IMG/VR virus record: IMGVR_UViG_3300044675_001548
Location: 54,229 to 118,228 of that record
Length of the DNA stretch: 64,000 bases
Source: a virus
Reading direction: 5' to 3' (one strand)
In this document: one piece after another, positions 1 to 64,000 of the stretch
Numbering within the stretch: position 1 is the stretch's first letter
How the letters are laid out: each line of letters begins with the position of its first letter
Made by a program: the position numbers and the translations under genes
The notes under the pieces: generated by a model
What the model was told of the DNA's origin: nothing
What the model saw: the letters and a program-made list of their open reading frames with translations, nothing else
Database searches by the model: none

Positions 1-162
1 GTAGATATTCAAGACCTTTCCGAAAATCTTTACGATTATGAAATTCTTGAAGTTTTAGATGGATTTAATGATACCTACACAGGCTCATCATTTAAAAGCT
101 ATGAAGAAGCACAAACAGCCTGTCTAGCTAATTTAATTGAAATTGTAGAACAAAAAAAATGA
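1..162 (+). CDS. 3' fragment of a small hypothetical phage protein (5' end outside window)
   Basis: Frame 1 is open from base 1 to TGA 160-162 and reads ...FKSYEEAQTACLANLIEIVEQKK; not in the ORF track. Confidence 0.6.
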   Translation, partial: VDIQDLSENLYDYEILEVLDGFNDTYTGSSFKSYEEAQTACLANLIEIVEQKK

Positions 163-256
163 GAATAGAATGAGATAAATAGTAGTAAAGTGCTAATCCA
201 GCAGATGCTAGGACCATGGGATGGTTAAAATGATTTTATTAATGATTTAAAAATTT

Positions 257-1006
257 ATGATTATGAAAAAAGGATTTATTCAAATAGCTACAACAACAGA
301 TTATACATTGTTTAACTATTTACCAATGAACAGAATTATTGATGCAAAACAAGTAGAAGCATTAGTACAGAGTCTCCGCAAGATTGGTGTAAGAAGATCA
401 GTAATGTGTATTAAAACAGATCTTATTGATGGTGAGTTAAAAACTTATATTATTGATGGTCAGCATTTGTTACATGCATGTCAAAGGGAAGGCGTTCCAG
501 TTAGATATGAATATGTTGAGGTAACTGATCTTGATGATATAGTACATACTATGGCATTTTACAATAACTCTTCCAAGTCTTGGAAGCTTATGGATTATGT
601 AAATGCTTGGTTATATATTCACCCTGATTACCTTACACTGAAAAAGTTTAAGAACTTGTATAACTTGGAACCACTAATGATTGCAGGTATTTGTAATAAT
701 TCAGATTCTTACAATGGTGTATCTGCTGCAAGTGATTTAATTAAAACTGGTAACTTTAGAGTTACAAATCCAAAAGCTCAAGCAATGTGTAAAGACTTTA
801 GTGATTTGTTTATTAAGATTGGTAAAGCTGATAGATGGGTTAAGCATAACTTCTTGAGAGTATTTATACAGGCTTATAATAGTAAAAATTATGACCATAA
901 AGCTACTCTTCAGAATATTGATGATAACATCAAGACTATTAAAGCTATGACAGATGTATCTGAGGCTAACCAGTTTATCCAAAAGAATGTATTTAATTTA
1001 ATTTAA
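257..1006 (+). CDS. ParB/Srx-like (DGQH-type) domain protein
   Basis: YIIDGQHLLHAC core motif followed by ParB-like helical region (NNSSKSWKLMDY); the usual Arg of DGQHR is Leu. Confidence 0.65.
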   Translation: MIMKKGFIQIATTTDYTLFNYLPMNRIIDAKQVEALVQSLRKIGVRRSVMCIKTDLIDGELKTYIIDGQHLLHACQREGVPVRYEYVEVTDLDDIVHTMAFYNNSSKSWKLMDYVNAWLYIHPDYLTLKKFKNLYNLEPLMIAGICNNSDSYNGVSAASDLIKTGNFRVTNPKAQAMCKDFSDLFIKIGKADRWVKHNFLRVFIQAYNSKNYDHKATLQNIDDNIKTIKAMTDVSEANQFIQKNVFNLI

Positions 1007-25830: not shown

Positions 25831-28800
25831 TTATTTAAGATTTTGGAATTGTTCATCTCTTCTTAATGCCCATATAGGAGATAGGTTCTTACCTTTAATA
25901 CCATAGATGCTTAATATGTGATTCCATAATTTATAGTCCCCTTCTTCTTGCCATGGATATGGTCCAGACTCTTGACGGTATACAGCCTTCTCACTACCGG
26001 TTGCCATGTAACCTAAATCTGCAAGTATCTTTAAGTAAAGACCAATAGTAGGACCAAATGCAATTGAAGTAGCATCTCCATATTTATACCATTCTTCTAG
26101 TCCGCCAACCCATGGTAATGGAATAAAAGATTGGTTCTCTCTTTTGGTTGCAATTAACTGATACAACATATGATTACCCATCCATCCAAAGTAACCATAG
26201 TCCTCTTCTCTCTTGGCTAGTTTCTGGAATCTATCTTCATCCTGAGGATCCCAACCAAATATAAGAGTTATAGCCATTGCCATTAATGCAAGTGTCATAC
26301 CTTCAGTAATCATTTTTCTGAATGCAGCTTTTTCTTCTTTAGTCATTACTGACCAATAAGCACCACCGGTTCTCAATGTTTTATACATTGCTTGGACACC
26401 TGCTATATAATATCCTTTTACAGGTGAACCTGCTTCCCAGTTGTACACATGACCCCAGCGGTTATTCTTAGACAAGTCTGTTTGGAATCTGTTTAGGAAC
26501 ATACCAGTAGCAAACTTTTTATAGAAAGTAAATAGCCTATATACAATATACTTCTCTGCTTGTGGAGAATCTAGTTCATCCATAGCACCATTAAGTCTTT
26601 TCTGTACATAATGGATCTTCAACTTGTAGTCATTGAAATTAGTATTTCTAGATACAACAAGTTCTTGTCCTTCAGTAAGCTTAGCACTAGGTTTGATTTT
26701 ATTCTTAGCGGCCAGCTCTTCAACAGACATACTATATTTTTTAGCTATAGCCTCTAGAGTTTCATTAGGAGCTACAGTATGGTCAACATATCTATTACCC
26801 CACTCAGGATTAATACCCTGTTTAAGAACTATTTCTTTTTTATCATTAAGTTCCCAAGCATCTATATACTTTATTTTCTTTACAGAACCATCTGGTTGGA
26901 TTTGTTCTATTTCTTTATGATACATCATACCACCCATTACTTGGAAAGCACCTTCAACCTCCATAAGTTTTCTAGCATCATAAGCCCAGGTAACATCAAA
27001 CATATCTCTGATAAAACTTCTAGTAGCAGATTTACCATAGTCCTTTTCTACTTTACCTATAACAGGGTCAAACATGTCTATCATTTGTAGGTTAAGTGAC
27101 TTAGCTCCTTTCTTATAGATACCTCCTCCGGTAAAACCTGCAAGCTCAATAGCTGATTGATATGCCCACATTCTACCAGAAGCAAATGAGATTGGGTTAT
27201 AGTAAACCCCAGCTGCAGCTTCAATAGAGTTCTGAACTATCATACCAAATCTGTTTTTCACAGCTGATACCAAGTCAAAAGCAATAAATGATCTACTTGC
27301 ATTGCTCATTAAGCTATTAGCAAACTTAAGCCACCCTGGATATTCAGATTCCCATGCACTATTTTTCTGGCCATAGAATGTCTTTTCTATAAAGTAATCT
27401 AGTGCAGCAGCTCTTCTGTTGTCTCCAGCTTTAAGAAAAGATAGTACACCAGTATTCTTAGCTACTTGCTTACTAGCTTTATTTAGATCTTTGATAGCAT
27501 TATCTGGATCATTCATTACAGATCTCAGTGTTTCAGCCTTGGCTTTTTCTTTTATTAGTACTCCCTGTTTGTTAAGTGAGTAGTTATACATGAACATAGC
27601 ACTTAATACATCTGTAGAAACTTCATTAAGTTCCATTTTGTATAAACCGTCTACTGGAATTCTGGCTATAGGTTGTCCCTCTAAGTCAGTTGATACTAAT
27701 AATGTATTAGGATTATAGTTTATACCAAAGTTTTGGTAGTCATCTTTTCTTTTTGCAAATGTAGATTTAACAGCTTCCCATGTAGCACTACCTTTTTCTT
27801 TAACATCAGACACAGCTTTTCCAGACTTAAGTAATTCTAAGTTACTAGCCTTTCTTCTTCTTGGTAAGTCAAGATAGAGTTTAGCTGAACCTGGTCTATT
27901 CTCCTGCATCTTTAACATGTACTCAGTTACTTTATCCAGTAAGTTTTTCATAGCAGGATTAGTAATAGCTTGAGCATATTCTTTATCCATGTACTTATCA
28001 TCATAGGCACTGTTTGGATCACCTGGTTTGTATTCTTTAGGAAGGTAGTTACCATCATTATCTATAATAGTACCAATATATTTTTTCTTAGCCTCAGCAT
28101 CAAACGGTACAGTAAAGTACTCTTCTTTGACTCTTTGGTAAGAATACTTAGGTCCCGGTACTCCATTGATAATTAATGGTTGTTTAGTAACAGGATGTAC
28201 TAGAGTAGTTTTCTTGTAATGATTTTCATCTACAGGTTTTACTGAAGTCCACATTCTAGTTCTAAACCACTTGTCTTCTTTTTGTTTGGTACTATTGTTC
28301 CAGACTTTTTTCTTGTAGTGGTTATTCTCAAACCATTCTGCAAACTCTGGATTAAGTTCCATTGCAGTATATAAATCTTCAGAGTTTATCCAGTCATCTG
28401 CATTCTCTAAAGTAATATGAGGAACCTCTGTATCACCCAGCATATTATTAAATGCTATATAGTAGTATTCAGTAGGTGTCTTTTGTGTCAAGCCTCTTAA
28501 ATCTGCAAACAGTTCTTTTAGCTTTTTGAACTCAGATTCAGACAGACCTAACTCATTTCTTCTTGCTGTAAGTTCATCATAATCAGTCTGTTCTGTAACT
28601 GATAAGTCATAACCTGCTGCAAGTCTTTCTTCATAAGCTTTGAGTTTATCAGCTTCTTCAGCAAGTAAACCAGACTTGGTATCTATTTTACTTTCTAAAT
28701 CAGTTATCTTTTCCTCAATGTCCTTCATAAGTTTAAACTGCTCAGGTTTATACTCAAGAGCATTAGTCTGACCGTTTCTATCAGTCACAAGATTAGATAA

Positions 28801-31662
28801 TGCAAATCTCTGACGGTATAGATCAGCTAACTCAGTAGCAATAGCAGACTTCTTACTTTTGCTAGTAAGGGTCTTTATCTCAGTCATTATAGTATCTCTA
28901 CTTTCATAGTAGCTTGGAGTATAGGCTACTCTAAAGTTTCTTTCCTCAAACTTTTCAAGAGCTTTTTGAAACTCTTCAGGATTAGATTCCATTGTAATTT
29001 TTCTAGCAGCTAGGTCCTGAACAAAAGAATCTAAATCTGTTTGTACTTTATCTTCATTAGGAATATACTCATAGAACTTACTAGACCTTCTTCTATATTC
29101 TAGTCTTACTAAAACTCTTTGGAGCTCTTCTCCAGTTTTAGGTTGACCCTTGCTATCATATATCTGGAATAACTCATTGTATCTTTTCTGAGCTTCATCT
29201 GCTTCAGTAAAGGTATAGATGTCATCCATAGTAGTAAAGTCCCGGCTTTTGTATACTATCATCTCACCAAGTGCTTTCTGTCTTTCAAGATAAGACTCAG
29301 TAGCTATAGTAGCAGGGATTGTTTCTACTTGTTTTGTAAATGGATTAGTGATTTTATTTTCTTGTTTCCAAATATCCTGCACAGCATAATACTCAGGAAC
29401 TTTTTCCTGATGCATATATTTCTTTTCCCAGTCCCACTTTCTTGCAAGAATTTCTTTCATTGCAGTCTTGTCTCCTTTTTCTTGAGCCTGTTGGAATTCA
29501 TATTCAAATCTATCTCTGTCAGCTCTCCATCCGTTACCAAATTTACTTTTGATTTTGTAGACTTCAAACTCTTCATACTCACCTTTATCATTTGTACTAC
29601 CTACTTTATCCACAGATAGTAAAGCTTGTCCTGATCTCTCAATGTTTGTAGGATTTAGACCTGCAGCTTGCATTAGTGGTATAAGTGTCTCAAGCATATC
29701 AGTCTCTTCTCTAAGGCTAACTTGCTCAGCATCAGATAGTTTTGTTTTCATAAATCTTACAAAACTACCTAGCGGATCATCAATGGACATGTATGGGTTA
29801 AGAAGTGATTCCATAATACCTATGTCTTCTGTATTACCTTCTATCCAATTGTTTAATGAATCTCTGGTAAGTCTTTTTTGATAGTACTCACCTACTTCTC
29901 TAACTAATTCTGCAGCACGGGCTGAATTGATTCCAGCACCCATGTCTTTAACAGTAACAGTCTTACCATCAGGATTAGATATAATCCTTTCTACAAGTTC
30001 ATCTATCTGAGCCTGTGGTATTTTATCCTGTTTAAGATAAGTATTGATTCTTTCAGTTAATCTTTTTTCAAGTTCATCTTGCATAAATGCAGTATTGTCT
30101 TCCATGAACTGAAGAGCATATTCCTTTTGAAGTTCTTTTACTTTATCTCTGGCAACAGAAACTATATCAGATATATCAGATACTTCTTTTACAAACTCAT
30201 TGGTTCTTGAGAGACCAATAGTTTTTTTGATAGCCTTTAAGAATTTATCTTGTCTAGATAAGAAGTCATTAAAGTATAAGATTTTTGATATACCATCTTC
30301 AGTTAAGTAACTGTCATTGTTCTCCATCTCATTTAGGATGTTCTCTATCTTAGTAGTAAAGACTTTTACCTGGGATAAACTTTCAACTAATGCAGTAGCT
30401 CTCACTCTGAATTCCTCTTGTTGAGCTTGTAATGCTTCTGCCACATCTTCAACAGGAACATCTTTTACATCAACATTTTGGTATCTAGCTAGGAAACCTT
30501 TAAGATTACTAAGTATAGCAAGACCACCTTCACCAACAAGTTCTTTCTTAAGTCTACCTGAGTCTTTCAATACTTGAATCTGGTACTTAGCCTCAACATA
30601 TGTTTGGTTGATGGCATTCTGTAGATTTTTAGTGCTCACATTTTGGAGAGCATCTACAAGGTCATCATACTCATTCTTCATCTCAGCATAGTCTGTCTGA
30701 TCAAACTTTAAGTTAGCTATCTTAATGTCCTCAAACAGTAACATGTCTGTAAGTTGATCTATGGTTGTATCTGACTTAAGATCTTTTACAGAAATTACTT
30801 TGGATATTTTTCTGAAGAGTTCTTTTATAGCATATACAAGCATGCTGATAAAGTTATTGAACTCCGGATCCTGTTGCTGAAGCTTATTGATTTTATTCTC
30901 AGCATCTCTCTCAAGAGATCTAACAAGAACTTCTTCCATAAATCTATCAGACTCAAACTGTAGATTAGGATATAGAGCCTTCACTTGCTCAATAATACTT
31001 TGGCCGGTAGCTGTAAGCTTGGCTTTGTTATACAAGTTATTAAATAACTTATTGTTTTGGATTGATATACCTTTAATAAAAGGGTGGGCAAACTCATGGA
31101 TCATTGTACCCATGTTAGCTTTACCTTTAACTAGATATACCATATTACCATAGTAAAACCCTGGTTGATTTTTATATGGAGTGCTTGTTCCAGATAATGT
31201 CTCAATTGCTTCCTCTTCTGTTATGTACTGATATGGTACATCTAAAGTAAGCATCATTTTTTCTGCAAGAGCATTAAGAACTTTCTCTGCTCTCTCCTGA
31301 CTTACATCCTCTTTATTAAACTCAAATGGAACTATGTCTGGCTTAGATCTTTCTGGTAAATAATCTGGTCTAAGATATGCATTCTCTTTATAGAAGATAC
31401 CTTTGAAAGCATCTATCTGATGAAACATTTCTTTGTTAGGTAAAGCTCTGGTTCCACCAAACTCTGGAGTAAACAACCTACCTTCAATACCATATTTCTC
31501 ATTAGCATACTTTGACCACTTAGAGTTGTATTCCAGAAATTTTTTGAAGTCCTGGATATTAAGGTACTTATCTACAATACCTAGTGATCTCATGTTAGCT
31601 TTAGTAGAGGCTTCAGAGGACTTAAATCTTAAATTCTTGTTTGTGCATGCAGACCTTGCCAT
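25831..31662 (-). CDS. Large virion/ejection-type polyvalent protein (zincin HExxH, LysM, C-terminal TM segment)
   Basis: HEFAH at 31084-31098; LysM HTVAPNETLEAIAKKYSMSVEELAAKNKI...GQELVV at 26650-26781; hydrophobic GMTLALMAMAITLIFGW. Confidence 0.75.
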   Translation of the reverse strand: MARSACTNKNLRFKSSEASTKANMRSLGIVDKYLNIQDFKKFLEYNSKWSKYANEKYGIEGRLFTPEFGGTRALPNKEMFHQIDAFKGIFYKENAYLRPDYLPERSKPDIVPFEFNKEDVSQERAEKVLNALAEKMMLTLDVPYQYITEEEAIETLSGTSTPYKNQPGFYYGNMVYLVKGKANMGTMIHEFAHPFIKGISIQNNKLFNNLYNKAKLTATGQSIIEQVKALYPNLQFESDRFMEEVLVRSLERDAENKINKLQQQDPEFNNFISMLVYAIKELFRKISKVISVKDLKSDTTIDQLTDMLLFEDIKIANLKFDQTDYAEMKNEYDDLVDALQNVSTKNLQNAINQTYVEAKYQIQVLKDSGRLKKELVGEGGLAILSNLKGFLARYQNVDVKDVPVEDVAEALQAQQEEFRVRATALVESLSQVKVFTTKIENILNEMENNDSYLTEDGISKILYFNDFLSRQDKFLKAIKKTIGLSRTNEFVKEVSDISDIVSVARDKVKELQKEYALQFMEDNTAFMQDELEKRLTERINTYLKQDKIPQAQIDELVERIISNPDGKTVTVKDMGAGINSARAAELVREVGEYYQKRLTRDSLNNWIEGNTEDIGIMESLLNPYMSIDDPLGSFVRFMKTKLSDAEQVSLREETDMLETLIPLMQAAGLNPTNIERSGQALLSVDKVGSTNDKGEYEEFEVYKIKSKFGNGWRADRDRFEYEFQQAQEKGDKTAMKEILARKWDWEKKYMHQEKVPEYYAVQDIWKQENKITNPFTKQVETIPATIATESYLERQKALGEMIVYKSRDFTTMDDIYTFTEADEAQKRYNELFQIYDSKGQPKTGEELQRVLVRLEYRRRSSKFYEYIPNEDKVQTDLDSFVQDLAARKITMESNPEEFQKALEKFEERNFRVAYTPSYYESRDTIMTEIKTLTSKSKKSAIATELADLYRQRFALSNLVTDRNGQTNALEYKPEQFKLMKDIEEKITDLESKIDTKSGLLAEEADKLKAYEERLAAGYDLSVTEQTDYDELTARRNELGLSESEFKKLKELFADLRGLTQKTPTEYYYIAFNNMLGDTEVPHITLENADDWINSEDLYTAMELNPEFAEWFENNHYKKKVWNNSTKQKEDKWFRTRMWTSVKPVDENHYKKTTLVHPVTKQPLIINGVPGPKYSYQRVKEEYFTVPFDAEAKKKYIGTIIDNDGNYLPKEYKPGDPNSAYDDKYMDKEYAQAITNPAMKNLLDKVTEYMLKMQENRPGSAKLYLDLPRRRKASNLELLKSGKAVSDVKEKGSATWEAVKSTFAKRKDDYQNFGINYNPNTLLVSTDLEGQPIARIPVDGLYKMELNEVSTDVLSAMFMYNYSLNKQGVLIKEKAKAETLRSVMNDPDNAIKDLNKASKQVAKNTGVLSFLKAGDNRRAAALDYFIEKTFYGQKNSAWESEYPGWLKFANSLMSNASRSFIAFDLVSAVKNRFGMIVQNSIEAAAGVYYNPISFASGRMWAYQSAIELAGFTGGGIYKKGAKSLNLQMIDMFDPVIGKVEKDYGKSATRSFIRDMFDVTWAYDARKLMEVEGAFQVMGGMMYHKEIEQIQPDGSVKKIKYIDAWELNDKKEIVLKQGINPEWGNRYVDHTVAPNETLEAIAKKYSMSVEELAAKNKIKPSAKLTEGQELVVSRNTNFNDYKLKIHYVQKRLNGAMDELDSPQAEKYIVYRLFTFYKKFATGMFLNRFQTDLSKNNRWGHVYNWEAGSPVKGYYIAGVQAMYKTLRTGGAYWSVMTKEEKAAFRKMITEGMTLALMAMAITLIFGWDPQDEDRFQKLAKREEDYGYFGWMGNHMLYQLIATKRENQSFIPLPWVGGLEEWYKYGDATSIAFGPTIGLYLKILADLGYMATGSEKAVYRQESGPYPWQEEGDYKLWNHILSIYGIKGKNLSPIWALRRDEQFQNLK

Positions 31663-55685: not shown

Positions 55686-58600
55686 TTAACTTATAATTTC
55701 TACTTCACCACCATTTGCTAGGAATTCTTCCAGTTCTTCCGGAGTCATATCTACTACATCACCTTCTGCAAAACCACCCTCTTGCATGAAACCACCTAAC
55801 TGTTTAGATCTACTGTTCCATATCTGACCTTGTTCATTAGGTCTGTATAAACCAGTATTAGTATCATAGTCTCCACGGTCTCTACTAGGATCAGAAGCAT
55901 AAAGATTATCTGAAGTAAACTTGTCATAGAAGTCTTTGTTCTGTCTTCTCTGATCTCTTTTCTCAAGCCTATCAAATAAACCTCTGGCAAGAGCATTACC
56001 AGAGTTTAGCATAGCCTGTGCATCAAGTTCATAAGTATCTTTATTTTTAAAGTCTATTGCAAAAGAATCTTCTTCAATTCTTCTTCTAGCTTCATCTGGT
56101 GACATTACAATCTCATTGCCTGATTCATCCATAGTAGATGTACTACCTGCAGGAGCAGCACTAAAGTCATCACCCTCACCATAACCTTCATAGTAATTTA
56201 GTGTAGATTTTAGTTGTTGATTTTCATCTTTTTTAGGTTCACCAAATCCTGGTATAACAAGTTTACCAGCATCATCATAACGGAGAAAAGGGTTCACTGG
56301 GTTATTTGTATTTGATACAGGGCTTTCTGTTCCTGTTGAAGTCCTAGTAACTTCATCACCATAAACAAACTTGCTTAGTGCACCACCATATTGTTTACCT
56401 ATAATACCACGCATCCAATCAGGTACAAATTCCATTGCAGAATCTTGCTTTTGTTTTTTACTTCTAGGTTTTGCAATCTGATCTATTTTTCCTTGCATTG
56501 TATTATAGAACTTATCATAACCTTCTACTTTTAGATAGTTATCAAAGTCACCATAATTTTTTCTCTGTGCTGGTGACATGTTTTGCCACCTTGTATCAAT
56601 AGCATATAGTGTTTTTTGTCCAGCAGGAGAATCTTTTAATGTTTCAAGTTGATTTTTGTTTTTGTTTATTACACCTTTAATATCCCAGTCATCAGTCCAG
56701 TTACCAGCCTGATTACCTTGTCTATCAGAATTAAATGCTTGTTCTTTAAGTGCACCAGCATCTCTAGATTGTTTAGATCCTTGACTTCCAGAACCAGATG
56801 AGGCTTGTTGTTGCTGTTGTCTTATAGCAGCTTGCTGTTGATCATATTGTTGTTTAGCAGCAATCTCTCTATTTCTTACAGAACCTTCACTCATACCATC
56901 CATAGTTCCCGGAAGATATTGCTCATCATTAGATGCAAATCCTTCAAAGGCATCTGTATATTGTGGAAAACTATTTAGAAGCATATCTTCATAATTAGCT
57001 CCTTCTAATTGGCTTGCTGGTAGTGTTGGTGCATTGATATTATCAGTATAAGCTAACTTATAAAGATCTTCACTAGGTTTTCTAGTATTTGGAATTGCTT
57101 GATCTCTATTGCTGAATATATTTGATTCAGTTAATCTAGCACTACGTGGTTGAAAGTCAACAGGTTCAGATCTTCTATTTTTCTCATAGTAATCCATAGC
57201 TGCTTTTTCTCTGTCAGATAATTGGTAATCTTCTCCAGTTGCAATTTCAGGAGTTGCACCAAAGTTAGGATTTGCTGCAGGAGCACCAGAACTTCCCATA
57301 AACATAGGGTTTCTTTGCATTGATTGTTGATTCATGATCTCTTCTTCAGCATCAGCTGTTAAGTTATCTCTTTCAACTGCAGCTGCATCTTTTCCTACAA
57401 CTTCATTTCTTTGACGTATTAGTTCTTCAAGCTTGCTGTCTATCTGACCTTTTGTAGGGTTTTGTTTTAATAGTTCATTGAACTCAGCATCAGCTCCTTC
57501 ACCAAGTACCTCTGTAATATCACTCATAACATCACCCCATTCTCCTTGAACATAGTTATTTGCAGAATCAGGGGAATCATAAGTTGTAGTAGATTCTTCA
57601 AAGTCTGAAGGTCCTTCTTCATTTCCACCACCCATACCAATACCAAATGGATCATCCTGTACTCCTTCAACTTCAGAGAAGTTTCTTATAACACCTTTGT
57701 TAGCTTCAGTAGCCGCATCTCTTGCAGCAATTTCTTCAGCAGAAGGTCCATAAGCAGTTTCTTCAGTTTCAGCTTCAGGATCAGGTAATGAGTCAACCCA
57801 TTCTTGACTCTTCATATTTCTTTTCTCTTGTCTTTTTTCTTTTGCACTCATTTTATCCCATTCTGCATCTGAATATCCAAAGAAGTCTTTTGGATCTTTT
57901 GCTGATTTATTTGCAGTTGCTCCTGAAGCAGAATCTGAATAATCAGCTGATGATGCTGAAGAAGGTTGACTACCAGGTTTAGCACCGCTTGTCTCTTCTA
58001 AGAATTTAGCAAGCTTAGGATCTACATTGTAGTTACTAAAGTGCATAGTATATTTCTTAGGTCTACCGGATAACCAGCCTGATTTTCTTACATCAATTTT
58101 TGTAAGATTAGTGTTGGGTCCAAAACCTCCAGCAAAAGCTCCACCAGTTCTTGGATCATAAGGCATACCTTGTTGTTGAGACCATGTACCCACTCTTCTT
58201 ACAGTGTTAGCTGGGAAGTATCTACCAAAAGCATTTGGTCTATAACCACCTCTTACATATCCACCATAAGGATCATATCCTCCACCACCACCTGAAGACT
58301 GATTTTCTTTTGTATAATCATCTTGCCATTTCTTTTTTTCATCAGCTAGTCTCTTATCATAATCTTCTTTAGATGTAATAGCTTGGAACTCTGGTTTTTT
58401 AGCCTCTTCTTTTTTCTCTTCTTTTTTCTCTTCAACTATTCTTTTAGTTTGTAAATTATCAGGAACACCATCACCATCTTTGTCCCAGTCCTTTACTTCT
58501 CCCTTTTTTTCATATTTTACTAAACCACCTTTAGCAAAGAATGGACTACCTGTATTTCTAGAGTCTGTATAGTCTAGGTCTTGTTGTGTGGTAACATCAT

Positions 58601-60473
58601 CTCCACCATATACAAACTTGTATAGGTCTGGATTTGAGCTGTCTACAAAACCACCACTCTCAAAACCACCAGGTAAAACTCTTTTTAAATCCCATAATGA
58701 TTTAACAGACTGACCAACATTTTTTAACATGTCAAGCTTCCCTTGTTGTTCATTTAAATATCTATCTACAATTGTGTTACTTGCAGGAGCTGGATTGGAT
58801 TTTGAATTATTTTTGATACTATTTTTTAACCATTCTGGTACAGGATCATATGTTGATGCTTTTGCCGGGGCTTTACCTGATTCAGTTAAGTGTGCAAAGC
58901 CTTTAGATTTAGCTGTAACAGCAGCTTTACCTTTATTAGTTTGTGCAGATGAAGCTGCAGGTTTGCTTTGACCAGCTTGTTTTGATTTGGTAGCTGTTGT
59001 TGTTTTTGCTGTTGCTGTTTTAGTGGGTACTTTAGCTCCAGTACCTACTGCATCTTTATTAGGGTTGTTATTTACTGCTGGAAGATTTGTTTTAACTTCA
59101 GTTACATCCAACATGTTGTTTGCATTTCTGTCATATGCAGAAGCTGTACCAGGAGTTGATGGTATTATATTACTTTGAACATTATCAGGAACACCATTAC
59201 CGTCCTTATCATACTCAGGATTGTTATTTAAAACTGTAGTATTATTTTTACCAGGATCAGCAGCTTTGTTTACTAACTTGGATACACCTTCTATAGTTTT
59301 TCTTTGTTTAGATTTAGTACCATAACCAGCACCAGGCATCATTCCAAATCCAGGTATAGCAAAGTCACCGCCAAACTCAATAGAATATTGTGATGGTCTT
59401 CCTGTAAGCCAGTTAGATTTTCTAACATCCAACTTCATACCCGGCATAGTTCCTTGTACATGTATAGGTTTTTGCTCAGGCATCATTTGAGGATATGTCA
59501 TGATATTCATTCCCATAGGAAAGAATCCACCCTGTGGAACCATGCCTGCAAATGATTGCATTTGGTTTCTACCAAAACCTCTTGGCATCATTCTACGCAT
59601 TTGTCTTACTGACATACCACGTTGAGCCATTGGTACTTGTTCCATAGGAGGTTGCATAGGAACTTGTTGCTGCATCATAGCTTGTTGCTGTTGTTCCCAC
59701 ATAGCTTCAGCTTTCTCTTTCATTTTAGCTTCTTGAGCTGAACTTGCTAGTGCTGCAACAAACTCATCTTTCTTATTTTTCTTTTTATTATCCATGGTGT
59801 CCATAGGATCAAAACCAGCAGAAGGCTTTTCTTCTTCACCTCCAGCTTGTTTCTTAAGTAATTTCATTACTTGACCTATGTACTTTCTTTTTGTAATACC
59901 ACCTTGTTTATAAAAATTTTGTTTGTCTTGATTGTATTCATAAGGATCATATCCAGTAAAGCTTACTGCATTGTCTTCAGGAATTATATCACCACCTTGT
60001 TGCATGTAGGCTTCTTCAGGTATGTCATCATCATCATCTTCATCTTCTTCATATTCACCATCAGCAGCTGTATCATCATAGTAACCATAGTCATCAGCTA
60101 GACCAGCTTGTCTTTCTTCTTCAGCTTCTTGCTCTTGACGTTCTAATTCTGCTAAGCCTTCATCATATACATCAGTCTCTTCTTCTTCTTGAACTGGTTC
60201 TTGACTTTCAAAATTAGCAGCAATGTTTTCTACCATTTGCTCAGCTTGATCCATAGGAATTTTAGCAGCCACTAACTCACCTATGAGTGAGTCTTTTGTC
60301 ATCTCCATATCAAGCTCATCAGTGTTTGCAAGGGTTTTGTAAACATAATCAGTTATTTGTGATTGCTGATCTTGTTGCCCACCTTCCTGTGCTTTCCGTA
60401 AAAACTTTGCGGTTTTGTTTACAAATTTTCCTTTACCATCTGGAGCTTTGTAAATTCTTACTTTTTTCTTCAT
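55686..60473 (-). CDS. Low-complexity modular putative virion protein with GG-motif punctuation
   Basis: About 11 xxxGG motifs, an internally duplicated module, DxDGxG Ca-binding-like loops, Q/E/D-rich linkers. Confidence 0.6.
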   Translation of the reverse strand: MKKKVRIYKAPDGKGKFVNKTAKFLRKAQEGGQQDQQSQITDYVYKTLANTDELDMEMTKDSLIGELVAAKIPMDQAEQMVENIAANFESQEPVQEEEETDVYDEGLAELERQEQEAEEERQAGLADDYGYYDDTAADGEYEEDEDDDDDIPEEAYMQQGGDIIPEDNAVSFTGYDPYEYNQDKQNFYKQGGITKRKYIGQVMKLLKKQAGGEEEKPSAGFDPMDTMDNKKKNKKDEFVAALASSAQEAKMKEKAEAMWEQQQQAMMQQQVPMQPPMEQVPMAQRGMSVRQMRRMMPRGFGRNQMQSFAGMVPQGGFFPMGMNIMTYPQMMPEQKPIHVQGTMPGMKLDVRKSNWLTGRPSQYSIEFGGDFAIPGFGMMPGAGYGTKSKQRKTIEGVSKLVNKAADPGKNNTTVLNNNPEYDKDGNGVPDNVQSNIIPSTPGTASAYDRNANNMLDVTEVKTNLPAVNNNPNKDAVGTGAKVPTKTATAKTTTATKSKQAGQSKPAASSAQTNKGKAAVTAKSKGFAHLTESGKAPAKASTYDPVPEWLKNSIKNNSKSNPAPASNTIVDRYLNEQQGKLDMLKNVGQSVKSLWDLKRVLPGGFESGGFVDSSNPDLYKFVYGGDDVTTQQDLDYTDSRNTGSPFFAKGGLVKYEKKGEVKDWDKDGDGVPDNLQTKRIVEEKKEEKKEEAKKPEFQAITSKEDYDKRLADEKKKWQDDYTKENQSSGGGGGYDPYGGYVRGGYRPNAFGRYFPANTVRRVGTWSQQQGMPYDPRTGGAFAGGFGPNTNLTKIDVRKSGWLSGRPKKYTMHFSNYNVDPKLAKFLEETSGAKPGSQPSSASSADYSDSASGATANKSAKDPKDFFGYSDAEWDKMSAKEKRQEKRNMKSQEWVDSLPDPEAETEETAYGPSAEEIAARDAATEANKGVIRNFSEVEGVQDDPFGIGMGGGNEEGPSDFEESTTTYDSPDSANNYVQGEWGDVMSDITEVLGEGADAEFNELLKQNPTKGQIDSKLEELIRQRNEVVGKDAAAVERDNLTADAEEEIMNQQSMQRNPMFMGSSGAPAANPNFGATPEIATGEDYQLSDREKAAMDYYEKNRRSEPVDFQPRSARLTESNIFSNRDQAIPNTRKPSEDLYKLAYTDNINAPTLPASQLEGANYEDMLLNSFPQYTDAFEGFASNDEQYLPGTMDGMSEGSVRNREIAAKQQYDQQQAAIRQQQQQASSGSGSQGSKQSRDAGALKEQAFNSDRQGNQAGNWTDDWDIKGVINKNKNQLETLKDSPAGQKTLYAIDTRWQNMSPAQRKNYGDFDNYLKVEGYDKFYNTMQGKIDQIAKPRSKKQKQDSAMEFVPDWMRGIIGKQYGGALSKFVYGDEVTRTSTGTESPVSNTNNPVNPFLRYDDAGKLVIPGFGEPKKDENQQLKSTLNYYEGYGEGDDFSAAPAGSTSTMDESGNEIVMSPDEARRRIEEDSFAIDFKNKDTYELDAQAMLNSGNALARGLFDRLEKRDQRRQNKDFYDKFTSDNLYASDPSRDRGDYDTNTGLYRPNEQGQIWNSRSKQLGGFMQEGGFAEGDVVDMTPEELEEFLANGGEVEIIS

Positions 60474-60497: not shown

Positions 60498-60524
60498 TAA
60501 ACTACTAAACTTATTAAGTTTAAT
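60498..60524 (-). promoter_or_regulatory. Candidate late-gene regulatory motif, copy B (contains inverted repeat TAAACTT-N3-AAGTTTA)
   Basis: On the - strand ATTAAACTTAATAAGTTTAGTAGTTTA; similar to 53368-53396. Confidence 0.4.
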
Positions 60525-63318
60525 CTAGCTCTTCTACTATGTAACCTCTCTTTATATAATCTTGAATTTCCTTGTTTGACATGGTAGTTACAATACCACC
60601 TTTTTGTTGAGTTGGTAATTCACTGTTTGCATTTTTTAAGTGCCTTCTTATATGTTTTGGTTTTAAATAGTTAAACCCTTTAAAACCTTTTGTGTTAATT
60701 GGAACAAGGTCAGCTCTCTTTGTTGGTAGACCTGACATTGAATTAATTAATCTTATAACACTAAAGGCTGTTCCTGCATCAACACCATCTTTTGAGACAT
60801 CATCATAGATCTCTTGACTACGTGCTATTACATTCAATGGGGTTGTAAGATTATATGCATGATTTGCTGGTGATAGTACACCTGTTAAATCAACTACTGC
60901 ATCAGTCATGTTTGTTAAACCTTCTCTAAATTCTTCTCTGCTTCCATTTGAAAGACCTTCTTGTAATTCACCGGTACCTTTATAAACATTTTCACCAGCT
61001 TTTGTAAGAGTATATCCTCTTAATACATTCTTAACTGTAGGTTGTGCCCAGTCTGGCATATTTTCCATTACTTGACCTGCTTTATTAAGAAGTTGAGTTC
61101 CTTGAGCAGAATCTGTTATATAGTCAATACCTTTTGCATAAGGTGTTGCAGCAGCTTTAACAAGATTTGCTTTAAGTGCAGGGTCTGTAAATTTAGCAAA
61201 ACCTTTAACAGCACTTTTGTATTTATCTTTAAATGGTTTAATATAGGTTTTTGCAAAGTTAAATCCCTCTTTAGTTTTCAACCAGTCTCTAGCAGCCTTC
61301 ATAGTTTTTAGTCCAGGATAAGCAATGATTGCAAGATTAGCTAATTCATCAAGACCTTGACCATACTTTTCTCCAAATCTATTTAATTCACCTTCACGGC
61401 CTGTTGCCAAGTCATAACCTTCCACAAGTGTTGTTCCAACACCCTCTATTGTATCCATAGGATGTCTTGCAACCTCTTGTAAAGCATATGCTGTACTTGC
61501 ACCTTGCACATATGGATTTCCAAGAACAGCTTGAGCTGCTGGACCTACTGCACCTGCGGCTCCTACAAGTGGGATTGCAGTTGCTACTTTACTTACCATA
61601 TCAACAAACTGTGGCACATCTTTCATTGCAGCAGCTTCAGCTTCTTTAGCTGAGTAAACTGCATTAGAACCTTTACCTTGCTTTACATTAGGATCAACAG
61701 CATCTAGTCCATATCCTTTATATAAAGCTGCTACTTGATCACCAGATAAATTAGAATTTCTTATAGCATCCAAGATCTTCATTTTACCTTTTGTGGTATT
61801 AAGATCTTTTAGTTTAAGATTCTGTATGTCTTTGTTGTCTTTTAAGGCAGCTTTGCTTTTAAGATTCTCAAGTCTCTTAAGTTCAGCCTGTGTATCTTCT
61901 TGTTCTTTTCTTAATTCATCTTTGTAAAGTTGTATACCTTTTCTAAGATCTTCAATACTAGAAGAAGCATCAGCTATGTTTAATCTAAACTTTTTACCTT
62001 TGTTTTTTTCTGTAAAGTTTTGATATGCTTGTTTTGCATCTGATAACTGTCTAATAAGACTTGCTTGTACTTTTTTAGACTTGCCATCATATACTGTAGT
62101 TTCTGGTAAGTCTTGTACACCAGGTTTTGTATCACCACCATTATCAAATCTGTTTAATGAAGGTACAGAAATATCTTCTACAACATAACCACCATTAACA
62201 TACTGAGCTATCTCATCATCATCAAGTTCAAGATCTACATACCCACCGTCTTCAAAACCATATTTTATACCTGCTGTTACTCTTGGATTAAAATAACTAC
62301 CAGGCATCATAGTGTTTTGTATACCGGCATTTGCTACAAAGTTTTTACCTAGCTTTTTTTCATAACCAAGTTCCAGATTTGCACTTGGATTAAATAACTT
62401 TCCTGGTTCTGAATAATTACTTAATGTAGCATCACCATATATGTTTCTGTATTTTTTTCTTATACCTATGTCTTGAGTTGATCTAGGTGCAGTGTTTCTA
62501 TTCATGAATGGAACTTCTGCATTTATGTTACCGTGTAATCCAGATTTATGTGACATATCTACATTAGCACCAATAATCTGAGAACCTGGTCTGTTTGAAT
62601 TTGTATACAACCTAGGCTTTATGTTAAAGTTAGGAGGACCACCCTCTTGATAATACTTGGCATTAGGATCAAATACTTTATTCTTTTTAGACTTGGGTTT
62701 TTTAAACAATCTGTTTTCTGTAAACAATCTGTTTGTTGCATCAAGACTTCTTGAATACTTCTTAGAAGCTAAACCTTTCTTACTTGGCTTAGGCATTGGT
62801 ATAAGACCTCTTGTATAACCTCCTCTTTTCATTTGTGGATTATCATCTACACTTTGAACATTCCAATTATCATCAAAGTAAATCATGGAACCATGTTTGG
62901 TTTTTACAGTTTTTGCATTTAATTCTTTTGCTTGTGCTTTCATAGATTCCCAATTAGGAATCCAAAAACCTTCTTCATTATATGAACCAGCATCTTCAAT
63001 AACTGGAATATCACTTCTTGTTCCACCACCCTTACGCATGAAGTCTTCAGGTTGTTCTAACTCTGGCTGCATTCTGTAATTAGTAGTTAGCTCTTCCCCA
63101 GGTTTAAGATCTCTTTTGGCATACACATATCTTTTGTCACCAACCTTAACACTGTACATAGTTGGTTCATCAGAATGATTATGCATTTTACCTAGTGTAC
63201 CTACAGGCTGACCTTGTCTATGAGCAAGACCTATTCTTTCACCTTGCTTAATTGGGTTCTTTGCAAATAAACCTTTATCTGCATTTGGGATTTTAGATTT
63301 AGATACTTTATACTTCAT
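60520..63318 (-). CDS. Modular putative virion polyprotein with N-terminal SET domain
   Basis: SKIPNADKGLFA...NHSDEP...RDLKPGEELTTNY; modules separated by MRKGG, MKRGG, YQEGG, FEDGG, YVNGG, FDNGG, QQKGG. Confidence 0.7.
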   Translation of the reverse strand: MKYKVSKSKIPNADKGLFAKNPIKQGERIGLAHRQGQPVGTLGKMHNHSDEPTMYSVKVGDKRYVYAKRDLKPGEELTTNYRMQPELEQPEDFMRKGGGTRSDIPVIEDAGSYNEEGFWIPNWESMKAQAKELNAKTVKTKHGSMIYFDDNWNVQSVDDNPQMKRGGYTRGLIPMPKPSKKGLASKKYSRSLDATNRLFTENRLFKKPKSKKNKVFDPNAKYYQEGGPPNFNIKPRLYTNSNRPGSQIIGANVDMSHKSGLHGNINAEVPFMNRNTAPRSTQDIGIRKKYRNIYGDATLSNYSEPGKLFNPSANLELGYEKKLGKNFVANAGIQNTMMPGSYFNPRVTAGIKYGFEDGGYVDLELDDDEIAQYVNGGYVVEDISVPSLNRFDNGGDTKPGVQDLPETTVYDGKSKKVQASLIRQLSDAKQAYQNFTEKNKGKKFRLNIADASSSIEDLRKGIQLYKDELRKEQEDTQAELKRLENLKSKAALKDNKDIQNLKLKDLNTTKGKMKILDAIRNSNLSGDQVAALYKGYGLDAVDPNVKQGKGSNAVYSAKEAEAAAMKDVPQFVDMVSKVATAIPLVGAAGAVGPAAQAVLGNPYVQGASTAYALQEVARHPMDTIEGVGTTLVEGYDLATGREGELNRFGEKYGQGLDELANLAIIAYPGLKTMKAARDWLKTKEGFNFAKTYIKPFKDKYKSAVKGFAKFTDPALKANLVKAAATPYAKGIDYITDSAQGTQLLNKAGQVMENMPDWAQPTVKNVLRGYTLTKAGENVYKGTGELQEGLSNGSREEFREGLTNMTDAVVDLTGVLSPANHAYNLTTPLNVIARSQEIYDDVSKDGVDAGTAFSVIRLINSMSGLPTKRADLVPINTKGFKGFNYLKPKHIRRHLKNANSELPTQQKGGIVTTMSNKEIQDYIKRGYIVEELD

Positions 63319-63998
63319 TACCTTAAGGATACTTGGTTTTTAATATTGGATATTTTGAATATCATGTTTACATCACCTGATACCATTCTTGACAAACTTA
63401 AGAAATTTAAATAATGTCTAAACTTCTTTCTTTGCAAAAGTGGTTTTACATAATCTAAGTTAGCTTGATTAAGGAGTCTCTTGTAACCGCTAGGTCCTGT
63501 CTCCCATATCTGTCTCTCATCATAGTTACCTAATAGTTGTGTAGTTCCTGGAATAAGTGGTCCTTGTGGAGGATAACTTGATCCTATCGGAAACTCAGCT
63601 CTATCTTTTGTTATATCCCAGAATTGGTTTAGTCTGTATTTGTTTTCTTCTTTAGAGAATAAGATATCATATCCTGGAACTGGTAAGTATGTTGGGTCTA
63701 CAGATAAAGATGGATTAGGTCTTGGGTATTGTAAACTTAAAGCTACATTATTCTTAGGGAATATATTTAGGTTTAAGTATCCGGAAACTTGCTCTGAGTT
63801 ATATACCAAGGCTCTGTCAAAATTAAAGTCAAGAACATGATACTGGTCAAAGCAATTGTACTCAGATCTTTTATAACACTCTAATATATACTCTACAGAT
63901 TTAATTGTAGTTACTGTTTGTCCTGTTGATACAGGTATCTCTATTTCAAATGGGTAATCTACACCATAGAAGTTACAGTAAGTTCCACATGTTCCACC
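63318..63998 (-). CDS. 3' part of a putative tail stabilization-type structural protein (5' end outside window)
   Basis: The frame stays open past the track's TTG start (63809) to the window edge: ...CNFYGVDYPFEIEIP...VYNSEQVSGYLNL...KKFRHY; resembles crAss-like tail proteins from memory. Confidence 0.5.
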   Translation of the reverse strand, partial: GGTCGTYCNFYGVDYPFEIEIPVSTGQTVTTIKSVEYILECYKRSEYNCFDQYHVLDFNFDRALVYNSEQVSGYLNLNIFPKNNVALSLQYPRPNPSLSVDPTYLPVPGYDILFSKEENKYRLNQFWDITKDRAEFPIGSSYPPQGPLIPGTTQLLGNYDERQIWETGPSGYKRLLNQANLDYVKPLLQRKKFRHYLNFLSLSRMVSGDVNMIFKISNIKNQVSLR

Positions 63999-64000
63999 TG

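Follow-up and report, generated by a model that had tools for sequence, protein, structure and literature searches.

The last 64 kb of IMG/VR virus record IMGVR_UViG_3300044675_001548 (here called the window; the whole record is 118,228 bp) comes from an uncultured crAss-like phage and carries an open reading frame (ORF) for a 932-amino-acid (aa) protein whose N-terminal end, aa 1-93/97, is a true minimal SET-fold domain. SET methyltransferases, minimal viral SET domains, and virion cargo proteins bearing several enzymes are each already known singly. What is new is a clade of SET domains that lack the SET-I insert, carry a C-terminal tail motif of their own, and are fused to proteins encoded at the cargo position of crAss-like phages. 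The chances appear about even that the domain is a virion-carried, swappable protein methyltransferase module that would become active after ejection and would function like vSET of chlorovirus PBCV-1 or Alt of phage T4.

The SET family profile of Pfam (PF00856; cut-off, 22.4 bits) matched aa 1-97 with 43.9 bits (E 3.4e-11) and the full 932-aa protein with 36.1 bits, the alignment covering only model positions 56-104, in the C-terminal half of the model. A profile made from 25 family members matched the SET domain of MLL1 (E 3e-9) and vSET (E 1.4e-7); its match to MLL1 falls into two parts, SxIxGxGLF...GE corresponding to SET-N and NHS...GEELTxxY corresponding to SET-C. The AlphaFold2 (AF2) model of the domain, predicted from the family alignment, had a predicted local distance difference test score (pLDDT) of 87.9 and a predicted template modeling score (pTM) of 0.76. 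Foldseek searches with this model returned vSET as the top match (3kma, E 1e-5, TMq 0.65), followed by MLL1, PRDM3, and SET7/9, and the probability of the SET match was 1.00. In a VIA structural search against representatives, the top 50 matches were exclusively SET/PR domains (Z 11.9 to 6.2), and the alignments covered 79-91 of the 97 residues, or 69 in one row, at a root mean square deviation of 1.8-4.4 A; the Z scores for EZH2, MLL1, and SET7/9 were 11.9, 11.5, and 10.5. A first-pass annotation, made from the DNA letters alone, had called the domain a SET methyltransferase and had named the PF00856 model and structure prediction as checks, and both upheld the fold. A 24.5-bit match to the SAF domain (PF08666) was rejected: it spans only 16 residues (aa 63-78) and represents a local resemblance inside the beta-clip fold, because the fold searches return SET/PR domains only.

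The ORF and the parts of its SET module lie in the window as follows, with aa numbers counted in the 932-aa protein.

60520..63318, minus strand: whole ORF, encoding the modular, Cys-free 932-aa protein in the position of cargo protein 1 (ORF list).
63028..63318, minus strand: mini-SET domain, aa 1-97, with its folded core at aa 2-93 (Pfam SET, AF2, and fold searches).
63271..63285, minus strand: motif I region, N-A-D-K-G, aa 12-16 (clade alignment; the MLL1 counterpart is SPIHGRGLF).
63172..63183, minus strand: motif III, H-N-H-S, aa 46-49, an "NH" motif of the S-adenosylmethionine (SAM)-binding type (codons CAT AAT CAT TCT; the MLL1 counterpart is RFINHS).
63076..63099, minus strand: motif IV, G-E-E-L-T-T-N-Y, aa 74-81, with catalytic-type Tyr81 (the MLL1 counterpart is GEELTYDY).
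63040..63069, minus strand: clade-specific C-terminal tail, Q-P-E-L-E-Q-P-E-D-F, aa 84-93 (207-domain alignment).
63025..63030, minus strand: Gly-Gly junction, aa 97-98, closing the SET module (GG position kept in the family).

Canonical SET domains carry motif III as N-H-S/C-x-x-P-N and motif IV as E-L-x-F/Y-D-Y with the catalytic Tyr, and they rely on a post-SET or C-flanking element to close the channel for cofactor and lysine. The strings that the first-pass annotation had read as motifs I, III, and IV, namely SKIPNADKGLFAKNPIKQGERIG at aa 8-30, MHNHSDEP at aa 45-52, and YAKRDLKPGEELTTNY at aa 66-81, are all present in the protein at these positions. Its domain length of about 80 aa was too short, as the folded unit measures about 92 aa (aa 2-93) and is followed by F-M-R-K-G-G (aa 93-98). 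In an alignment of 207 domain instances of the phage mini-SET clade, S8, I10, G16, G30, H33, G43, N47, H48, E76, T78, Y81, P85, and L87 are 100% conserved, and I29, H46, R63, Q84, Q89, P90, and F93 are about 98% conserved. The invariant residues N47, H48, Y81, E76, and G16 are, as judged from the motif comparison, exactly the SAM/catalytic-type positions, and E76, T78, and Y81 all belong to motif IV. The clade consensus at motif I is G-A-G-K-G or G-K-G; at the first position of GxG (aa 14), G makes up 80%, D 10%, and N 10%, and this phage has Asp. Motif III reads H-N-H-S-D-E-P-T here; across the domains, the residue after Pro52 is T (55%) or N (44%). Among the deviations listed in the first-pass annotation, the DKG reading of GxG is thus a real minority state, whereas PT in place of PN and the missing post-SET Cys residues are the norm of the clade.

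After Tyr81 the clade has the consensus R-x-Q-P-E-L-E-Q-P-E-D-F, which is conserved nearly as strongly as the catalytic motifs; residues of the QPELEQPEDF tail are 77-100% conserved, with values of at least 90% everywhere except D92. The whole protein contains no Cys (count, 0), and therefore there is no Zn post-SET. The tail may be a candidate substitute for that element: the AF2 model predicts aa 90-96 as a helix at lower confidence (pLDDT 54-74), and the VIA alignment to SET7/9 (1..97 versus 214..356) reaches the C-flanking helix.

The SET-I insert and motif II (Y/F-x-G) form one wall of the substrate groove in canonical SET domains. The stretch from the SET-N strand to the NH motif spans 14 profile positions in the clade versus 48 residues in MLL1, and therefore the SET-I insert and the strands of the lysine channel are missing from the clade. 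By this loss of SET-I, as far as the sequences indicate, the mini-SET is the smallest SET variant found in this analysis. Domains of the SET1/MLL type (MLL1, PDB 2W5Y/5F5E) are its nearest sequence relatives among solved structures, and motifs I, III, and IV align; MLL1 differs in possessing the SET-I insert, the motif-II Tyr, and a Zn post-SET and in its need for the WRAD partners.

HMMER was run exhaustively against 1.84 billion cluster representatives (clusters at 50% identity) and recovered 414 clusters of the mini-SET clade at E <= 1e-3 and 236 at E <= 1e-10, and the best 150 of the 414 clusters share 51-82% identity over about 95 residues. The family proteins range from 112 to 2378 aa, with a median of about 1000, and are almost unalignable outside SET; the 160 homologues found for the 932-aa protein are all named "hypothetical protein" in the databases. 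Hundreds of related phages have the domain, on proteins that are probably carried in the virion. A scan of cellular genomes, one per prokaryotic species, returned ordinary bacterial SET domains only, at 24-49% identity, with no member of the clade, which is otherwise viral, and no prophage copy, so these representative prokaryotic genomes give no clue to the host. As a separate observation, the chromosome of Hydrogenophaga sp. ANAO-22 carries a 204-aa ORF (L008:7848-8462) with a mini-SET likewise devoid of the SET-I insert; it lies directly downstream of a 658-aa ORF that resembles a primase/helicase by eye only, which would suggest a mobile element or prophage.

Cultured relatives were sought among 50,697 phage records by tblastn with the whole protein and by megablast with 9 kb of DNA, and none were found; the SET domain alone matched cyanophage P-RSM6 and others only weakly, at E values no better than 0.1. 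The P-RSM6 protein CPXG_00131 (99 aa, phrog_28741) has a Pfam SET score of 44.9 bits and is 35% identical to the phage mini-SET (pairwise E 2e-10), with which it shares the truncated layout, the G-L-S/A-H strand, NHS, and EELxxxY. It differs in being a free protein of a T4-like phage, annotated as "hypothetical protein," and in lacking the QPELEQPEDF tail and the GG junction. Its gene (NC_020855.1 132178-132477; L007:1456-1755) lies directly upstream of a gp25-like baseplate wedge gene. The ESM Atlas contains clusters of viral "SET domain-containing proteins" of 94-102 aa. Small viral SET domains are common, though uncharacterized, in phage metagenomes, and the first-pass statement that a SET domain is unexpected in a tailed phage was overstated in view of the 414 clusters, the stand-alone mini-SET of P-RSM6, and the ESM Atlas proteins. 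No relevant paper emerged from a literature search on SET in crAss-like phages, Crassvirales, cyanophages, and polyvalent proteins.

The SET domain is one module of the 932-aa protein, and the remainder of the ORF and the adjoining gene are laid out in the window as follows.

62827..63024, minus strand: optional module A, aa 99-164 (the short allele described below is without it; present behind another N-terminal module in homologue P0007).
62638..62826, minus strand: Lys-rich basic linker, aa 165-227 (common to the short allele and the SET-less homologues).
62167..62241, minus strand: internal copy of an acidic motif of about 25 aa, ELxxxEIxxYxxGGYxxEE, aa 360-384 (matches the C terminus of the short allele, E 1e-8).
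60520..62166, minus strand: conserved C-terminal core, aa 385-932 (50-60% identity to many SET-less homologues).
63318..64000, minus strand: 3' end of the upstream 1883-aa muzzle gene (PF25731 crAss_MUZ, 96.6 bits, L003:549-6200), which continues at the start of the record.

Among 207 family domains, SET is N-terminal in 170, internal in 29, and C-terminal in 8, and four proteins (P0121-P0124; L089:5134-10992) hold two mini-SET copies in one polypeptide. Close homologues of the C-terminal 550 residues occur without SET; some open directly with the basic linker, and others, including P0009, P0013, P0014, and P0021, begin with an alternative N-terminal module of about 60 aa (GQWKHPG..NTRIP..GVxYPV..) that ends in K-[RK]-G-G. 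It is behind this alternative module that module A recurs in P0007. GG follows QPELEQP by 5-7 residues in 163 of 202 family SET domains. An overall enrichment of GG in the 932-aa protein was considered and rejected (8 observed versus 7.5 expected), and only the post-SET GG position is conserved. Confidence collapses after about aa 93 in both AF2 models, that of the SET domain and that of the 183-aa short allele, and the linker is predicted to be disordered, with aa 94-163 of the short allele at pLDDT < 50. In these sequences the GG junctions look like the points at which modules are exchanged as cassettes.

Pfam searches of 31 large family members found YkuD in 4, ART-PolyVal in 3, Amidase_2 in 2, and SLT, phage lysozyme, and CBM_14 in 1 each; in the 932-aa protein, SET is the only enzyme domain that Pfam recognizes, and a Pfam search of the C-terminal core (aa 385-932) found no family. 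In this distribution the SET module behaves as a swappable effector cassette on an ejected protein of the "polyvalent" type and not as an obligatory structural piece. Polyvalent proteins of phages (Iyer et al. 2017, PMC5512222) likewise string unrelated enzyme modules on virion-delivered proteins, and family members join SET with ART-PolyVal, YkuD, Amidase_2, SLT, and lysozyme; the 932-aa protein differs in having one enzyme domain and no hub domains (MPTase, ArdC, and MuF). A whole-word search of the main text of that paper found no SET domain.

The record also provides a second version of the gene. It overlaps itself imperfectly, its first 1.2 kb (C1:1-1231) repeating the last 1 kb of the window (within 62638-64000) at 94% identity, which explains the "linear" class of the record; two strains were probably joined by the assembler. 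The short allele at the record start encodes SET (93 of 101 residues identical), the basic linker, and the C-terminal acidic motif (L001:1-78), and it runs for 183 codons to the record edge, where the frame is still open, versus 932 aa in the window; about 750 other residues are not present in it. Within the SET codons the two alleles differ by 21 synonymous and 8 nonsynonymous changes (ratio of nonsynonymous to synonymous rates [dN/dS], 0.067), which indicates strong purifying selection on the SET domain at the codon level. Thus, some 750 residues would have been deleted while SET stayed under purifying selection. A second copy of the acidic motif closes the C-terminal core of the long allele (60523-60597; motif match E 9e-6); with the same ELxxxEIxxYxxGGYxxEE motif at the end of the short allele, the 932-aa protein looks like two motif-terminated units fused.

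The position of the gene in the genome is the main link to virion cargo, and the lack of Cys and the long disordered linkers of the protein fit that placement. The muzzle stop codon and the ATG of the 932-aa ORF overlap in the sequence TAATG (63316-63320), and farther upstream on the same strand are genes matching CrAss_Ring_2 (82.7 bits) and CrAss_Ring_1 (39.5 bits). Downstream are six more large ORFs of 756-3829 aa. The first-pass description of the domain as the first module of a late phage protein in a structural region thus stands, as SET opens a modular protein encoded in the block of ring, muzzle, and giant-protein virion genes of a crAss-like phage. The order ring-ring-muzzle-SET protein was repeated in two relatives with usable contigs. 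In a third (GCA_050043615.1, 111,910 bp), two small genes separate the muzzle from the SET protein, a 1417-aa protein in which SET lies C-terminal to a YkuD L,D-transpeptidase domain; on a fourth contig, the gene preceding that of the SET protein encodes 1710 aa and has no Pfam record.

The muzzle gene of PhicrAss001 is followed by that of gp45, cargo protein 1, whose N-terminal portion occupies the tail barrel and is poised to leave first (PMC10172136). The 932-aa protein resembles gp45 (PF25725 crAss_CARG1; Bayfield et al. 2023) in being encoded by the first gene past the muzzle, ahead of giant genes associated with RNA polymerase, and in length and character (842 versus 932 aa, both long and partly disordered); gp45 differs in having no SET domain. 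The only match to "SET domain" in the PhicrAss001 paper (PMC10172136) is to "C2-set" immunoglobulin domains.

Other genes of the cargo block have features of their own. Neighboring proteins are Lys rich (7-10% K), and the adjacent 1595-aa protein (55686-60473, minus strand) contains 24 GG versus 12.7 expected (standard deviation, 3.2) and no Cys. Near aa 1628-1670, a 1943-aa giant protein (25831-31662, minus strand) matches the peptidoglycan-binding domain LysM with 38.2 bits in Pfam, which fits a cell-wall-facing role for part of the block. The cargo block of relative GCA_050043615.1 (L090:20485-22254 onward) also encodes a 5183-aa protein with PIF1/UvrD-type helicase domains.

The closest functional model is vSET, a protein that PBCV-1 packages in its virions and that methylates H3K27 of the host on entry (PMC7019647). 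Both vSET (A612L; PDB 1N3J, 3KMA; 119 aa) and the phage domain are viral minimal SET cores without pre-SET or a Cys-rich post-SET. The phage domain is about 25 residues shorter, with the region from SET-N to NH cut down, is about 21% identical to vSET, has its own QPELEQPEDF tail, and is one module of a 932-aa protein, whereas vSET is free-standing. The phage host is a bacterium without histones, and methylation by the phage domain and its packaging are predictions. A comparable paradigm among injected protein-modifying enzymes is Alt of phage T4, an ADP-ribosyltransferase.

If the domain is an injected methyltransferase module, the 932-aa protein, a late product whose translation is coupled to that of the tail muzzle gene, would be stored like gp45 of PhicrAss001 in the tail barrel or the cargo zone of the capsid, a placement suggested by gene position only, and would be pushed out into the host before the DNA or together with it. 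The SET unit, possibly freed first at the conserved K-G-G junction, would refold in the cytoplasm, bind SAM through the G-x-G strand, H-N-H-S, and the C-terminal tail, and methylate lysines of at least one protein with Tyr81 as the catalytic tyrosine; on the model of vSET, the targets would be host nucleoid or transcription proteins. The fully specified version, in which the SET-I-less unit of about 93 residues is an active lysine methyltransferase, carried by crAss-like phages, injected at the start of infection, freed at K-G-G, and modifying host nucleoid, transcription, or defense proteins, is doubtful.

Several findings weigh against an injected enzyme. About 34 residues of MLL1, comprising the SET-I insert and the strands lining the lysine channel, are missing from the clade; the motif-II Tyr is replaced, with Leu at its position within G-L-A-H, where His33 is invariant; in this phage, GxG has Asp or Asn in place of its first Gly; and the putative post-SET tail is modeled at low confidence (pLDDT 54-74). 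Catalytic competence is uncertain because the SET-I insert, the motif-II Tyr, and the first GxG Gly are lost, and the missing SET-I region and degenerate GxG are the chief grounds for caution. Speculatively, the loss of SET-I could have adapted the domain to pass through the tail channel. Delivery is subject to doubts as well. BLASTP of the 932-aa protein against gp45 gave no detectable similarity (E 0.44), and the portal-binding CARG1 domain PF25725 and PF25712 (gp45/gp46 domains) were absent at E <= 1 from all six frames of the whole record. Membership of the gp45 family was rejected on these results, leaving the 932-aa protein as a positional analogue only, and therefore its cargo status rests on synteny. 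If the N terminus ends in the periplasm or in the channel, there would be no SAM for it to use there.

The same losses would suit a dead SET-fold (beta-clip) domain kept as a structural or docking piece, either a plug or anchor for the leading end of the cargo in the barrel or muzzle or a peptide-binding module, an explanation that we consider unlikely. Besides the missing SET-I insert and motif-II Tyr and the degenerate GxG of this phage, it would account for the usual N-terminal position, whose gp45 equivalent in PhicrAss001 is the portion closest to the muzzle, and for the tail QPELEQPEDF, which is noncatalytic and yet conserved like the catalytic motifs; SET folds can also be structural, as in the SET chain of spinach plastid RNA polymerase, which is among the fold matches (Z 6.8). 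A purely structural role sits poorly with the residues that never vary, which are the SAM/catalytic ones N47, H48, Y81, E76, and G16. The module is also found internally and C-terminally and is swapped or missing in close relatives with the same muzzle-cargo layout; therefore, it is not an obligatory assembly element.

An active enzyme need not work in the next host. The domain could methylate the phage's own Lys-rich linkers, neighboring cargo, or virion parts in the producing cell before packaging, with possible effects on DNA binding, on packing, or on protection from host proteases or a lysine-directed defense. SET is in cis with a Lys-rich disordered linker in 74 of 202 cases, the neighboring cargo proteins are rich in Lys, the cytoplasm supplies SAM while virions assemble, and the domain would not have to refold after being ejected. 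SET-less homologues nevertheless retain the same basic linker, so the linker is independent of SET, and the AF2 model does not dock the linker onto the SET domain; self-methylation is judged improbable, to the same degree as a dead domain. As a candidate pseudosubstrate docked on SET, neither the basic linker nor the C-terminal motif gained support from that model, given the pLDDT of < 50 at aa 94-163 of the short allele. A SET-fold enzyme acting on a nonlysine or small-molecule substrate, like bacterial BurB, is very unlikely. BurB (9l4t, solved in complex with methionine) is among the fold matches (Z 8.4), and the truncated substrate groove might not accommodate a peptide; however, histone/protein lysine methyltransferases score above it (Z 10-12), the sequence motifs are nearest the SET1/MLL type, and nothing in the genome vicinity points to small-molecule metabolism.

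The crAss-like phages are one of the most abundant phage groups, and crassvirus cargo has few described roles. Known injected protein-modifying enzymes are mainly ADP-ribosyltransferases, and, to our knowledge, protein lysine methylation is not among the described means by which tailed phages take over or disarm bacteria. If the mini-SET proves inactive, a catalytic fold would have been reused as a structural piece of an ejection protein. An injected, active SET domain would be to bacteria what vSET is to the hosts of chloroviruses and would join the ADP-ribosyltransferases as a new class of effector delivered by injection. If active, it would also be the smallest SET methyltransferase known, useful for defining the minimal catalytic core, and would provide a concrete, testable function for part of the crassvirus cargo, raising the question of which bacterial proteins merit methylation in the first minutes of infection.

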